This document shows, in pieces, positions 38,389 through 44,000 of a DNA stretch of 64,000 bases. Position 1 is the first letter of the stretch. Every line of letters starts with the position of its first letter. The stretch comes from Candidatus Obscuribacterales bacterium. Its GTDB lineage: Bacteria; Cyanobacteriota; Vampirovibrionia; Obscuribacterales; Obscuribacteraceae. Made by a program: the position numbers and the translations under genes. The stretch spans positions 224,001 through 288,000 of the forward strand of contig CBDDIJ010000003.1 of NCBI GenBank assembly GCA_965228855.1, given 5' to 3'. Below the pieces are notes generated by a model. That model had not been told where the DNA came from, ran no database searches, and saw only the letters and a list, made by a program, of their open reading frames with translations.

Positions 38389-38392
<4 letters not shown>
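37466..38392 (+). CDS. czcD: Cation diffusion facilitator (CzcD/ZitB-like)
   Basis: His-rich N-terminus; SLALIADAGHMLGD, TYGYYRTEILAA and HDLHVWTI motifs; GGAGG RBS before ATG 37466. Confidence 0.9.
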
Positions 38393-40077
<1,685 letters not shown>

Positions 40078-40162: not shown

Positions 40163-40804
40163 CTACTTTCTCTTAGAGCCTCGAAGTCCGTTCAAAATTA
40201 GATGCAAAAATGTTTCAACCTCAGTGTCGAATACCTTTCGGTCTGGTCGCCCTTCCTGAGGCACTGCTAAGGTTCGATCGTACGGTGGCAGATAGGCTCC
40301 GAGCATCGTTGCAATCACTTCCGTTTGAAGAGTGGTATCGGTGTCCTTTGAAATTTCGCCTTCGCCAAGTGCTGCGTCAAGGAACGACTGAATTACATTT
40401 TTCATTTCGGCGAACTTGTGATGGGCGCGGCTTCGAATTCGTGCGCTTACATAGACCAGTGTGTCAGGTGTGCGCACGCTGCTGGACTCTTCGTACACCG
40501 AGCCGACGAACTTCTTCAATGTGGTTTGTAGCGCTGGAAGGAAATCTGAATCTGTTTTTTCCAAAATGCTACGCATCATTTTAACCATGCTTGCGCAGTG
40601 ACTTTCGCATATCGTGAGAAGGATATCTTCTTTGTTGGGAAACACCGTATATAGTGTCGCCTTGCTCATTGGTACGGCACGAGCGATCTCTTCCATTGTG
40701 GTTTTCTCGAAACCATTTTCGTGAAACAGTTTGCGTGCTGCATCGACAATCTTTTCGATTTTTGCGTCGGCTTTGGAATCGGCCTTTGTTTCGGCTGGGA
40801 CCAT
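40163..40804 (-). CDS. TetR/AcrR-family regulator
   Basis: IVDAARKLFHENGFEKTTMEEIARAVPMSKATLYTVFPNKEDIL; GGAGG RBS before ATG 40804. Confidence 0.92.
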   Translation of the reverse strand: MVPAETKADSKADAKIEKIVDAARKLFHENGFEKTTMEEIARAVPMSKATLYTVFPNKEDILLTICESHCASMVKMMRSILEKTDSDFLPALQTTLKKFVGSVYEESSSVRTPDTLVYVSARIRSRAHHKFAEMKNVIQSFLDAALGEGEISKDTDTTLQTEVIATMLGAYLPPYDRTLAVPQEGRPDRKVFDTEVETFLHLILNGLRGSKRK

Positions 40805-41019
40805 TGTTACCTCCGGAGGCAAACGCGCTGCGCTGGGAGCTGGAGTGCGACTCGTCGAGGGACGATGACTCGCGTGGAGCCTCCAGGCAGTTTTCTGACT
40901 TTTACTATAGTAAACGATTGAACGATTTTTGTTTAGTCGTTCAATGTTAAATCGACATAAGTCGCCCAACTTCTCCGCTCTCGTCCGCGCCGACCGCCCG
41001 CTGCCCCCTTGCTCCCCTG

Positions 41020-41051
41020 CTCCGCTACTCCGCTACTCCGCTACTCCGCTA
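41020..41051. repeat. (CTCCGCTA)4 tandem repeat
   Basis: Read directly. Confidence 0.9.
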
Positions 41052-41182
41052 CTGCGCCTATTCTCCTCTCGGTATGTTTAGAAGGGATTTCGTATGCCGC
41101 CTGCGGAATGGGTTCCAGAGGTATTCCTCCCGAAGTATCAAATTCGCCTCGGTCTAATACTGCCAGCGGAATAGTGGAGAGC

Positions 41183-41264
41183 GGAGAAGGAGTTGCTGGT
41201 GAGCGGAGAAGGAGTGGTGGAGAGGGAGAAGGAGTTGCTGGTGAGTGGAGAAGGAGTGGTGGAG
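41183..41264. repeat. Purine-rich 42-bp-period duplication
   Basis: GGAGAAGGAGTTGCTGGTGAG(C/T)GGAGAAGGAGTGGTGGAG at 41183 and 41225. Confidence 0.9.
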
Positions 41265-41469
41265 TCCGCGGAGGTAGGGGAGGAAGGGGAGGTACGCGCT
41301 TTTGTCGTTGTGATCGGCGCGTGTCGAAACTGCCAATAAAGAGGATTAGGCAAACAGTTGTCGAGTGATTTCCGCTTTTGGGAATTTGCACGGCGTTTGG
41401 AGTTGAATTCGCTGACTGGCACGGCGCTTTCGGTGTTTTGTAGTTTGGGCGACCAAACCTCGAAAGAAC

Positions 41470-41498
41470 TGGACGCCCATCGAAAACTTGGATATGAT
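41470..41498 (+). promoter_or_regulatory. Putative promoter of RNA B1
   Basis: TGGACG-N17-TATGAT; the same geometry recurs at B2. Confidence 0.5.
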
Positions 41499-41501
41499 TG
41501 A

Positions 41502-41697
41502 TATTGATACCAATAACAGATGCACAGGACTACCTGCGGTGGTCCACAACAATTGTCTGGCACGAGGCATTTAGACCCTCGTTAATAGGTAGAAATTGAG
41601 CGGAGATTGCACGGCAACCTCCGTTGATGGTGGCGCATTTAGTACCACTACAACGGGTTGTCGGCTTTGCGTTGAGTGGCTGTCCATGCGAATCTTC
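41502..41697 (+). ncRNA. Unassigned structured RNA 'B', copy 1
   Basis: ~195-nt homolog of 42171-42367 with compensatory or G-U-tolerated changes in several stems. Confidence 0.6.
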
Positions 41698-41830
41698 GTG
41701 AAATCGCTGATAAAAATGCTGTAACTGTTCCAGTGCAGAATTGGCTTGTGGTTCCGGGTTTTTGATGTTTGTCTGGCTGGTCTTCTCTCCGATGGATAGC
41801 GGCTTTCGTCGGACGCTAAAAAATTTTCTT

Positions 41831-41877
41831 AAAACAAAAATGGGGGACTTCCGCGCGGGGAATTCTGTTGGTATATT
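41831..41877 (+). promoter_or_regulatory. Putative promoter of RNA A1
   Basis: A-tract UP-like element, TTCCGC-N17-TATATT with extended -10 TG. Confidence 0.55.
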
Positions 41878-41880
41878 AGT

Positions 41881-42092
41881 AAATGAAGACGGTGAGTGAC
41901 TTGAAACGAAGCCACTTTGAGCCGAGGGGCAATGCGGAAACGGCAGGTTGGCGCCCAACCGGATACGACAGCAAGCAGCCCGCTAAGCGTGAAGGACTAG
42001 CTGAAGCGCTTTGAAATACTGAGCCTGTGCAACAGGCAGCTAGACGGTAGCTTGAGCACCACTGCAACGTAAGTTGGGTGGTGTTTTTGTTT
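41881..42092 (+). ncRNA. Unassigned structured RNA 'A', copy 1 (includes terminator)
   Basis: 212 nt, ~95% identical without indels to copies 2 and 3; covarying hairpin; GNRA-capped terminator followed by a T tract. Confidence 0.7.
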
Positions 42093-42138
42093 GCGGATCT
42101 TTCTCAAAAAAATATGGTGCCAAGATGTGCAAAAGTCG

Positions 42139-42167
42139 TTTACCAGCGGCATGTTGTTGGGTATGAT
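42139..42167 (+). promoter_or_regulatory. Putative promoter of RNA B2
   Basis: TTTACC-N17-TATGAT. Confidence 0.5.
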
Positions 42168-42170
42168 AGT

Positions 42171-42367
42171 TATTGATACCAATAACAGATGCACCGGACT
42201 GCCTGCGGCGGTCCAAAATAATTGTCTGGAACGGGCATTCTAAATCCCGTTGAAATAGGTAGAAATTGAGCGGAGTTTGCACGGCAATCTCTGTTGATAG
42301 TGGCGCATTTAGTACCACTAAGACAGGTTGTCGGCTTTGCGTTGTCTGGCTATTCATGCGACTCTCG
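42171..42367 (+). ncRNA. Unassigned structured RNA 'B', copy 2
   Basis: Homolog of B1 with compensatory stem changes. Confidence 0.6.
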
Positions 42368-42499
42368 AAGATCTGTGGTGTCGAATGTGGTGCGTATTTC
42401 TCCTGCCGGTGCAGTGCTGTTGTTCAAGCGTTCGCTGGCGGTTTGAAAAATATAGAAGCGCATGGATACTCATACTTGGCTTGCTCAAAAAAGTTTTTC

Positions 42500-42547
42500 A
42501 AAAACAAAAAAGGGGGTCTTCCCATGTGCATGATTCGTTGATATAGT
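42500..42547 (+). promoter_or_regulatory. Putative promoter of RNA A2
   Basis: A-tract, TTCCCA-N17-TATAGT with extended TG. Confidence 0.55.
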
Positions 42548-42550
42548 TAT

Positions 42551-42762
42551 AAATGAAGACGGTGAGTGACCTGAAACGAGGTCACGTTGAGCCGAGGGGC
42601 AATGCGGAAACGGCAGGTTGGCGCCCAACCGGATACGACAGCAAGCAGCCCGCTAAACGTGAAGGACTAGCTGAAGCGTTTTGAAATACTGAGCCTGTGC
42701 AACAGGCAGCTAGACAGTAGCTAAAGCACCGCTGCAACGCAAGTTGGGTGGTGTTTTTGTTT
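42551..42762 (+). ncRNA. Unassigned structured RNA 'A', copy 2
   Basis: Exactly 670 nt downstream of A1; 11 substitutions, no indels. Confidence 0.7.
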
Positions 42763-42978
42763 TGGAAAGTTTTTCTGAGTCACCGCTGACGGTGCGCGCC
42801 GCCAGGCGTCGCTGCTCCCGTCTCCTGGCTTGCTGAGCGCTTCTTGGCAGGCGAGACTGGATTCACGTGAGAAGGTTCGAGCAGCAATACTGGTCTGTTG
42901 TTCAATGGATGCGAGAACAACTGCGTTTCCGAAACCCTTATGGATAGCTCTTATACATGGTTCCAGAAAGATTTTCTG

Positions 42979-43025
42979 AAAACAAAAAAGGGGGTCTTCC
43001 CACACGCATGATTCGTTGATATAGT
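42979..43025 (+). promoter_or_regulatory. Putative promoter of RNA A3
   Basis: A-tract, TTCCCA-N17-TATAGT with extended TG. Confidence 0.55.
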
Positions 43026-43028
43026 TAT

Positions 43029-43240
43029 AAATGAAGACGGTGAGCGACTTGAAATGAGGTCGCTTTGAGCCGAGGGGCAATGCGGAAACGGCAGGTTGGC
43101 GCCCAACCGGATACGACAGCAAGCAGCCCGCTTAGCGTGAAGGACTAGCTGAAGCGCTTCGAAATACTGAGCCTGTGCAACAGGCAGCTAGACGGTAGCT
43201 TAAGCACCACGGCAACGCAAGTTGAGTGGTGTTTTTGTTT
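43029..43240 (+). ncRNA. Unassigned structured RNA 'A', copy 3
   Basis: 478 nt downstream of A2; 11 substitutions versus A1, no indels. Confidence 0.7.
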
Positions 43241-43529
43241 TGGCAGAGTTTTTTGTTCTGTGGAGTTTTCGTGTCAGCGACATTATTTGTGTCGGCGGAG
43301 TTTTCGTATCCGCGCGGACCATGTTTTGCAGAGTACTTCGTTTCTCAGTACTTATATATAGGAAGACCTTCAATCGCGTTTTTCCTCTAGACGGCCATCT
43401 ACAAGCTCATAAAATTCACTTCGATTTCCATCGCTTGGAGGGTGCTAAGATCCGCGCAGTAAGCCGGTTTTTGCCTCTAATCAGTGGCAACTTTGTATAT
43501 CTGTTTTCTATATTTTTGAGGGTAAATGA

Positions 43530-44000
43530 ATGACGGACAAGCTTCAAGTGAAAGTCGAGCGACTCGCGCACTGCAAAGAACTCCCTCGCTACGCCACCCC
43601 TGGCTCTGCCGGCATGGACCTGACCTTTGCTTCGGAAGAGCCGATCACGGTAGCGCCCGGCAAGCGCGCCAAACTCGCTACCGGTATCAAGCTTGAAATC
43701 CCGTTCGGATACGAAGCGCAGATTCGTCCCCGCTCGGGTCTGGCCGCAAAGGCGGGCATCAGCCTCACGAATTGCGTCGGCACAATCGATAGCGACTACC
43801 GCGGCGAAGTGATGGTTTTGATAATCAATCATGGCGACGAACCTTATACATTCAGTCCAGGTGAGCGTATTGCCCAGATGGTGATCGTGCCGGTTCCGGT
43901 CATCGAACTTGTTCAGGTCGAACAAGTCGCAGACACTGAGCGGGGTGAAGGCGGTTTCGGTTCGACCGGCAAAACTGCTCTTGCCGCCAACGGCGCTTAA
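43530..44000 (+). CDS. dut: dUTP diphosphatase
   Basis: SAGMDL, RPRSGLA, GTIDSDYRGE, RIAQ and RGEGGFGSTG motifs. Confidence 0.97.
   Translation: MTDKLQVKVERLAHCKELPRYATPGSAGMDLTFASEEPITVAPGKRAKLATGIKLEIPFGYEAQIRPRSGLAAKAGISLTNCVGTIDSDYRGEVMVLIINHGDEPYTFSPGERIAQMVIVPVPVIELVQVEQVADTERGEGGFGSTGKTALAANGA

Follow-up and report, generated by a model that had tools for sequence, protein, structure and literature searches.

The window analysed here is a 64,000-nt stretch of DNA from a Candidatus Obscuribacterales bacterium, and all positions refer to it. Between a TetR-family gene and the dut-dapB-asd-dapA genes lies an intergenic stretch made of two repeats in the order B1-A1-B2-A2-A3 (Table 1). 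The three A copies are 209 nt each, lie on the + strand and align without gaps in blocks that begin at 41881, 42551 and 43029, and adding 670 or 1148 to an A1 coordinate gives the corresponding position in A2 or A3, respectively. The flanking TetR-family gene and the dUTPase/dapB/asd/dapA/RNase J genes are not part of the RNA system described below. The intergenic DNA 5' of B1 carries short tandem repeats (40998-41053 and 41183-41264), comprising 8-nt CCGCTACT units and a GGAGAAGGAG repeat spaced 42 nt, and a long (TTG)n repeat (39928-39977) lies within an MFS transporter ORF (38389-40077, - strand).

Table 1 Features of the locus, in window coordinates
Feature	Position	Strand	Remarks
TetR-family regulator ORF	40163..40969	-	left flank, divergent; true start probably near 40804
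Element B1	41470..41695	+	promoter-like site 41470-41498, then ~190 nt structured non-coding
A1 promoter	41829..41877	+	box TTAAA-N8-GGGGGACTT 41829-41850; -10 TATATT 41872-41877
RNA copy A1	41884..42092	+	predicted start ~41884, 6 nt past -10 hexamer; end in U-tract; Rfam poplar-1 portion 41916-42054
5' kink-turn hairpin of A1	41890..41924	+	mostly outside Rfam model; NC stem CGG/CCG
Kink-turn core pairs	U41893.G41921 (3n.3b), G41894.A41920, A41895.G41919	+	bulge 41916-41918
Kink-turn C stem	41896-41902/41909-41915	+	variable loop
P2 domain	41927..41981	+	stems 41927-41930/41978-41981 and 41933-41935/41971-41973
Symmetric internal loop RGAAAC-NN-YA, two-fold	41936-41945 and 41961-41970	+	inside P2
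Self-complementary hexamer GGCGCC	41950..41955	+	on hairpin 41946-41960; predicted intermolecular kissing loop
P3 hairpin	41983..42013	+	loop 41997-42002 (CUAGCU) pairs with 42038-42043 (AGCUAG), a 6-bp pseudoknot
P4 and P5	42017..42049	+	P4 UACUG/CRGUA, nearly invariant; GCAA loop 42029-42032
Terminator-like hairpin and U-tract	42055..42092	+	covarying; missed by simple terminator scan
Element B2	42139..42365	+	87% identity to B1
A2 promoter	42499..42547	+	degenerate box, below matrix threshold; TG-extended -10 TATAGT 42542-42547
RNA copy A2	42554..42762	+	Rfam match 42586-42724
A3 promoter	42977..43025	+	degenerate box; TG-extended -10 TATAGT 43020-43025
RNA copy A3	43032..43240	+	Rfam match 43064-43202
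dUTPase	43530..44000	+	right flank; then dapB, asd, dapA, RNase J

Element B gave no match in an Rfam search. Double changes were observed in 11 of its 64 predicted pairs across nine sequences, and no obvious terminator was seen. Its full-length matches came from 7 of the order's 101 genomes, belonging to only two genera, with one further weak partial match; in every case a poplar-1 copy follows on the same strand, 150-230 nt downstream. Predicted pairing of A1 with B was close to chance (-27.1 and -24.8 kcal/mol, against -26.2 and -25.5 for shuffles).

All three A copies matched the Rfam family poplar-1 (RF03041) at 129.3-133.5 bits, above the gathering cut-off of 110.5, over model positions 1-141, and the whole source genome contains six poplar-1 copies. 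Poplar-1 is a catalogued family, classed in Rfam as 'Gene; sRNA', so the RNA is not uncharted, and its function is unassigned. The family was reportedly first described by Weinberg et al. in 2017. The word 'poplar' is absent from the main text of PMC5737381, and the 2017 supplement may already show or comment on the pseudoknot and the taxonomy. In the literature searched, the name poplar-1 appeared in a drinking-water preprint only and 'RF03041' nowhere, no noncoding or structured RNA of Obscuribacterales or Melainabacteria was found, and we found no earlier description of the self-complementary loop, the dimer contact, the promoter box or the host order. Compared with the Rfam model, the RNA has the same nested stems in all three copies, but extends ~30 nt further 5' to include a kink-turn hairpin and ~38 nt further 3' to include a terminator. 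The Rfam structure line contains no pseudoknot, but the cmscan output would not display one anyway. The Rfam models of OLE, ROOL, GOLLD and raiA gave no match up to E 10 in 40900-43550.

The fold was examined in an alignment of 109 homologues with a mean identity of 67%, obtained by taking 115 of the 116 listed matches (one partial match was omitted) and dropping six cut by contig ends. Manual selection then reduced these to 77 by removing near-duplicate sequences and the four copies whose loop carries a long insertion. In the 77 homologues, a 56-pair structure was paired in 95.1% of 4280 cells, a value reached by none of 500 shuffles, with slid controls at 33-40%, and the P2, P2b, P2c, P3, P4 and P5 stems were 92-100% paired. 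Changes on both sides were found in 50 of the 56 pairs, a count favoured by the structure being partly derived from the same sequences. We also ran a tree-based covariation test of our own on the 109 sequences, confined to pairs at least 4 columns apart and so without those of the predicted kissing loop. At under one false hit expected it returned 17 pairs, of which 16 belong to proposed helices. The pseudoknot pairs and the best pair of the NC stem did not pass, with expected false counts of ~4.7 and 2.7, respectively. All six pseudoknot pairs change on both sides among the 77 homologues, as in CUGACU/AGUCAG, UUGGCU/AGCCAA and others. Single-sequence folding was weak, with z of -1.3 to -2.2 on the + strand and -0.8 to -1.3 on the - strand. 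At the 3' end of each copy lies a covarying hairpin followed by a U-tract, and a T-box reading of GGGUGGU was rejected because this word is the 3' arm of the terminator, covaries as a stem and has C for U in ~20%. The 3' tail GGUGUUUUUGUUU (42084-42092 and homologues) is conserved beyond the need of a terminator, with G at 42089 in 91%, and may mark a second recognition site. In all four copies of one genome (G017; L023, L056, L058 and L065), the P3 loop carries an insertion of ~14 nt and the pseudoknot strand is kept.

A sequence-only reading of the three copies had proposed a functional folded RNA on the + strand, with base pairing preserved by the differences between copies. The wide covariation among homologues supports a functional folded RNA, so the refuting outcome named with that reading, homologues lacking significant covariation, did not arise, and the strand of the Rfam match, the orientation of promoter and U-tract and the G-U excess (278 G-U against 51 A-C cells for the proposed pairs in the 77 homologues) all point to the + strand. 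The letters given for the arms of the first hairpin are correct (GTGACTT/AAGCCAC in A1, GTGACCT/AGGTCAC in A2 and GCGACTT/AGGTCGC in A3), and the alignment reproduces the change of pair 2 from U-A to C-G, the U-A / C-G / U-G variation of pair 6, the absence of indels and the A-U to G-U change in the terminator stem of A2, located at 42061/42079. Preservation of pairing is true of 8 of the 18 variable sites in 41881-42092 (41897/41914, 41901/41910, 41987/42009, 42046 and 42061), including a compensatory G-C to A-U change at 41987/42009 in A2 that had been overlooked. Of the remainder, five are unpaired, 42012 is a mismatch whichever base is present, and four break pairing, with A.C at 41899/41912 in A1 and, in A3, A-U to U.U at 41985/42011 and U.G to G.A at 42063/42077. 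The terminator loop does change from GUAA to GCAA among the copies, but it is a GNRA loop in only 63 of 112 homologues.

The same reading had described an invariant core and assigned it to a protein, ligand or catalytic site. The 68 nt at 41917-41984 are indeed identical in the three copies, with a chance of ~0.012 for such a run given 18 variable sites in 212 nt, but the segment varies across homologues: 27 of its 68 positions are at least 95% conserved, compared with 25 of 139 outside, so it is enriched in conserved positions yet not invariant. Its invariance among the copies partly reflects recent duplication. The hairpin drawn there as TGCG-GAAA-CGGCA is contradicted by the homologues, in which 41934 pairs with 41972 in 109 of 109 (G-C in 103 and A-U in 6); the partner assigned earlier, 41944, would form A.C with 41934 in those six, and 41936-41941, as drawn in that hairpin, are paired in only 84 of 109. 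A P2 stem reaching 41971-41973 together with the symmetric internal loop replaces it. For GGTTGG-CGC-CCAACC, in which the GGCGCC hexamer lies, the hairpin at 41946-41960 is retained, but the pair 41951-41955 that would close its CGC triloop reads A.C in 7 of the 109 homologues. The constrained site is better explained by the symmetric internal loop and a palindromic loop predicted to pair between molecules, and the more likely place for a putative protein site is the 5' kink-turn, mostly outside this core.

The 5' hairpin follows the standard kink-turn pattern NGG-UGA-G[hairpin]C-NNN-GAG-CCN in 106 of 109 homologues and in 67 of 73 held-out sequences. A standard kink-turn, as defined in PMC4382518, has a C stem and an NC stem, and between them a 3-nt bulge and then the pairs G.A and A.G. 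The capping loop varies freely, indicating that the kink itself is what is kept. At 3b.3n all 109 homologues have G.U, a pair that PMC4382518 lists as folding poorly when only Mg2+ is present and as typical of the protein-bound U4 kink-turn; -1b:-1n is C:G in 100 of 109 (see PMC8191799). We lean slightly towards a kink-turn that depends on protein, as predicted from these bases; tertiary contacts could fold it instead. L7Ae is the usual kink-turn binder. No free L7Ae was found in any carrier, and PF01248 matched weakly in 2 of 41 genomes, neither with poplar-1, so a protein partner is hypothetical. The PF01248 match that was inspected, ORF L247:217-2280 (+), looks by eye like an RlmB-type methyltransferase with an N-terminal extension of ~400 residues of Gly/Arg/Asp repeat, in a genome without a poplar-1 match.

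Kink-turns and pseudoknots together are common in riboswitches. Several bases of the junction formed by A41925, G41926, G41982, ARAUACU and AGUAG are 98-100% conserved without covarying partners, and this invariant junction and the pseudoknot could form the pocket of an RNA-only machine, dimeric or monomeric, that binds a small molecule or acts as a ribozyme. The commonness of kink-turns in riboswitches, noted in PMC4382518, and the failure to find L7Ae would fit such a machine. We nevertheless consider it unlikely, because no gene is placed for control, the G.U at 3b.3n differs from the 3n=G that PMC4382518 gives for riboswitch kink-turns, and no riboswitch or ribozyme family of Rfam matched up to E 10 in 40900-43550. 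The sequence analysis turned up no sign of catalysis or ligand binding.

The symmetric internal loop of P2 raises a different alternative, namely that the RNA uses a variant of the double T-loop to bind the tRNA elbow. The two strands, related by two-fold symmetry, share the sequence R-G-N-R-A, and G2 and A5 are 97-100% conserved. According to PMC3664808, the double T-loop module has the form AGNNA...UGNNA and one loop is argued to need U.A, whereas U is found at position 1 of either strand in 0 of 109 homologues (GG 52, GA 31, AG 12, AA 11 and other 3). Moreover, no unpaired UGG or specifier codon is evident, which makes tRNA binding quite improbable.

The hairpin enclosed by this loop carries the GGCGCC hexamer. 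Its central tetramer is self-complementary in 220 of 222 distinct cores (GCGC 188, ACGU 15, GCGU 13 and GUAC 4) and non-complementary in 2; one divergent copy has GAGG. Parsimony on a tree built with the loop masked placed 18 changes, 16 of which keep self-complementarity, although only 2 of 12 single changes would do so. The inferred switches include six from GCGC to ACGU and three from GCGC to GUAC; with GUAC in only 4 sequences and a quick FastTree tree, the three independent origins are an estimate. In a held-out metagenome set, 73 of 73 were self-complementary, 24 of them not GCGC, with a chance of 0.38 under the picking rule, and when the centre of the loop was derived from the fold, self-complementarity was found in 90 of 98. 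The other three hairpin loops were self-complementary at chance level (27/109, 32/92 and 28/109). Neighbouring bases cannot pair within one strand, hence we infer a symmetric kissing-loop dimer; adjacent-base covariation is also the criterion for the intermolecular loops L9.3 of OLE and L21a of GOLLD in 10.1101/2024.12.08.627333. Judged from this pattern of base changes, poplar-1 probably dimerises through its palindromic GGCGCC loop. The outer loop pair could instead close a two-base loop within one molecule. A monomer in which the palindrome serves DNA-level palindrome correction or a loop-reading protein would account for the dominance of GCGC (188 of 222) and for a whole hairpin that is nearly palindromic, but the chance-level self-complementarity of the other three hairpin loops and the use of four different self-complementary tetramers, hardly acceptable to a sequence-specific protein, make it decidedly improbable.

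Poplar-1 is a feature of one order. With the Rfam model, poplar-1 was found in 26 of the 27 other genomes examined within the order and in none of 13 belonging to the remaining orders of the class. Our extended model of 220 positions gave matches in 31 of 32 genomes within the order, as against 0 of 118 elsewhere in the class and 0 of 150 in a phylum-wide draw. In genomes outside model training, matches span all 220 positions, so the longer 5' end is a general property. A pattern scan of named genomes gave at least 149 loci, ~98 of which (counted by hand) are labelled Obscuribacter(ales/aceae) or Melainabacteria; among the loci listed, many others are labelled 'Cyanobacteria' or 'bacterium'. 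From these labels we take Obscuribacterales to be the host order. A few true matches, several of them from short contigs, are filed under different phyla. Pattern matches titled Planctomycetota, Bathyarchaeota, Clostridia and Planctomycetaceae were rejected as not being poplar-1 RNA. Two draws each included a single well-assembled member of the family that gave no match, so the RNA may be dispensable. One array (L279 and L280, G136:C8:161500-186000) holds nine poplar-1 copies mostly ~2.2 kb apart, several of which are oriented convergently to Ser/Thr kinase genes duplicated in tandem.

A selfish or hitch-hiking repeat spread by duplication would explain the 1-11 matches per genome, the tandem clusters and the co-duplication of one array with kinase genes. 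We regard it as very unlikely, as the RNA is carried by 31 of 32 genomes of the order and its promoter is duplicated along with it. In addition, the 70 neighbours scanned with Pfam belong to unrelated families and include no transposase or reverse transcriptase, and a search of viral contigs, phages and plasmids gave no poplar-1 match.

Upstream of the copies, a G-rich box lies 20-21 nt before a TANNNT hexamer in 106 of 111 regions; the 68 promoters with a 20-nt spacer share the box TTAAA-N8-GGGGTACTT, and the -10 is often TG-extended. The box pattern gave 93 matches in 41 genomes, 90 of them directly upstream of a copy and one further match near a contig end, while the reversed control gave 2. 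Since poplar-1 promoters themselves served to construct the pattern, the informative part is its near-absence elsewhere, from which the regulon appears to be poplar-1 alone. NtcA-activated promoters have the form GTA-N8-TAC-N22-TAN3T. The spacing fits an NtcA box in 68 of 106 cases, but the left half is mostly GTC, conservation is highest at GGGG and AAA, and the NtcA assignment was rejected. No NtcA exceeded the cut-off in the source genome, where one CRP-family gene scored 104.5 against 245 bits.

Genes adjoining poplar-1 show no common partner. The next gene is opposite in 44 and same-strand in 37 of the 81 cases with an ORF, and no partner gene emerged among 199 neighbouring ORFs (146 clusters, the largest of 8). 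The mixed downstream orientation and unrelated neighbours suggest that the RNA acts in trans. The RNA libraries of four metatranscriptome studies yielded 10 contig pieces, 9 of which fall within the A copies, 8 of these at 99-100% identity; these contigs come from 4 of the 24 runs listed, all chosen for holding the stretch, and record presence in the libraries and neither strand, ends nor level. The missing cover over B and the flanking genes was given no weight. In the drinking-water preprint, poplar-1 is listed with the small RNAs that are enriched intracellularly.

The three GGA words in A1, the multiple copies and the dedicated box would agree with an RNA that acts as a CsrB/RsmZ-type sponge or by base pairing, as Hfq-type small RNAs do. 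This assignment is largely refuted and now extremely unlikely: neither CsrA nor Hfq was found over cut-off in the 95%-complete source genome, GGA is replaced by AGA in ~20% and 35% of the two loop strands, and no exact match longer than 15 nt occurs elsewhere in the genome. TROVE/Ro60 was likewise not found over cut-off there, and a Y RNA, the partner of Ro60, was rejected on that ground. Rfam 6S RNA had no match at E 0.001 in the same genome, and a divergent 6S RNA may be present but unannotated in the lineage. YlxR is present and, being widespread, uninformative. A cis-acting riboswitch or attenuator for dut-dapB-asd-dapA, suggested by A3 lying 290 nt before dut on the same strand, has next to no probability given the gene orientations and unrelated neighbours above and tandem copies that each have a promoter and terminator, and a lysine-pathway riboswitch was rejected since the gene context is not conserved.

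We weigh, at roughly even chances, a mechanism in which stand-alone poplar-1 RNA genes produce an RNA that would dimerise through the GGCGCC loop, bind a predicted protein at the kink-turn and serve in trans as scaffold or decoy. A signal would switch on the box promoter via a dedicated activator, and several gene copies would supply the folded RNA, extra copies raising the dose. Two molecules would join tip to tip via the palindromic loop and present two kink-turns to a protein, which the dimer would organise as a scaffold or hold as a decoy. In this the RNA would operate as OLE RNA does, with a palindromic loop for dimerisation and a kink-turn for the protein, while its genes would follow the logic of regulated multi-copy RNAs such as RsmX/Y/Z or Qrr. 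Each copy appears to have its own promoter-like and terminator-like ends, and its product would act in trans. A bolder and rather doubtful proposal is that poplar-1 is the smallest natural self-assembling ornate RNA: lineage-wide, multi-copy and separately regulated, forming symmetric dimers with two protein-dependent kink-turns for a non-L7Ae binder, as the output of its own signalling pathway. It would include mixed dimers or larger assemblies of paralogues if the pseudoknot is also intermolecular. Natural RNA homo-multimers are rare, as stated in 10.1101/2024.12.08.627333. The predicted dimer contact, the protein-type kink-turn in hosts with no free L7Ae found, the box and the host order make poplar-1 a testable 209-nt target, and a partner search might uncover a novel protein that binds kink-turns among the non-photosynthetic relatives of cyanobacteria. 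Should the RNA turn out to be a monomer, the outcome would be limited to a corrected annotation for a family already known.

Among known systems, RsmX/Y/Z and Qrr1-5 are also multi-copy, stand-alone RNAs with a shared upstream box. They differ in that no CsrA or Hfq was found here and the fold of poplar-1 is far more elaborate. The raiA motif RNA is of a similar size class and pseudoknotted, and like poplar-1 it has no assigned function. In contrast, raiA was resolved as a monomer and is tied to particular genes. With the double T-loop module, poplar-1 shares two symmetric xGNRA strands, but it lacks U at position 1 of either strand. OLE and GOLLD are 600 nt or more in length. Poplar-1 differs from them and from ROOL in having several copies per genome, no adjoining partner gene and no sequence match. 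Membership of that group also calls for a multimer seen by cryo-EM or mass photometry with several inter-chain contacts, and the poplar-1 dimer is a prediction. It is also smaller, at ~209 nt against 659 nt for ROOL, and has one predicted intermolecular contact against five or more (10.1101/2024.12.08.627333). Nonetheless, poplar-1 resembles OLE, ROOL and GOLLD as a stand-alone structured RNA with a palindromic loop and adjacent-base covariation, and in OLE, too, a kink-turn has been put forward as the place where a protein binds. Poplar-1 thus looks like a known orphan family that resembles a new, small self-pairing ornate RNA.
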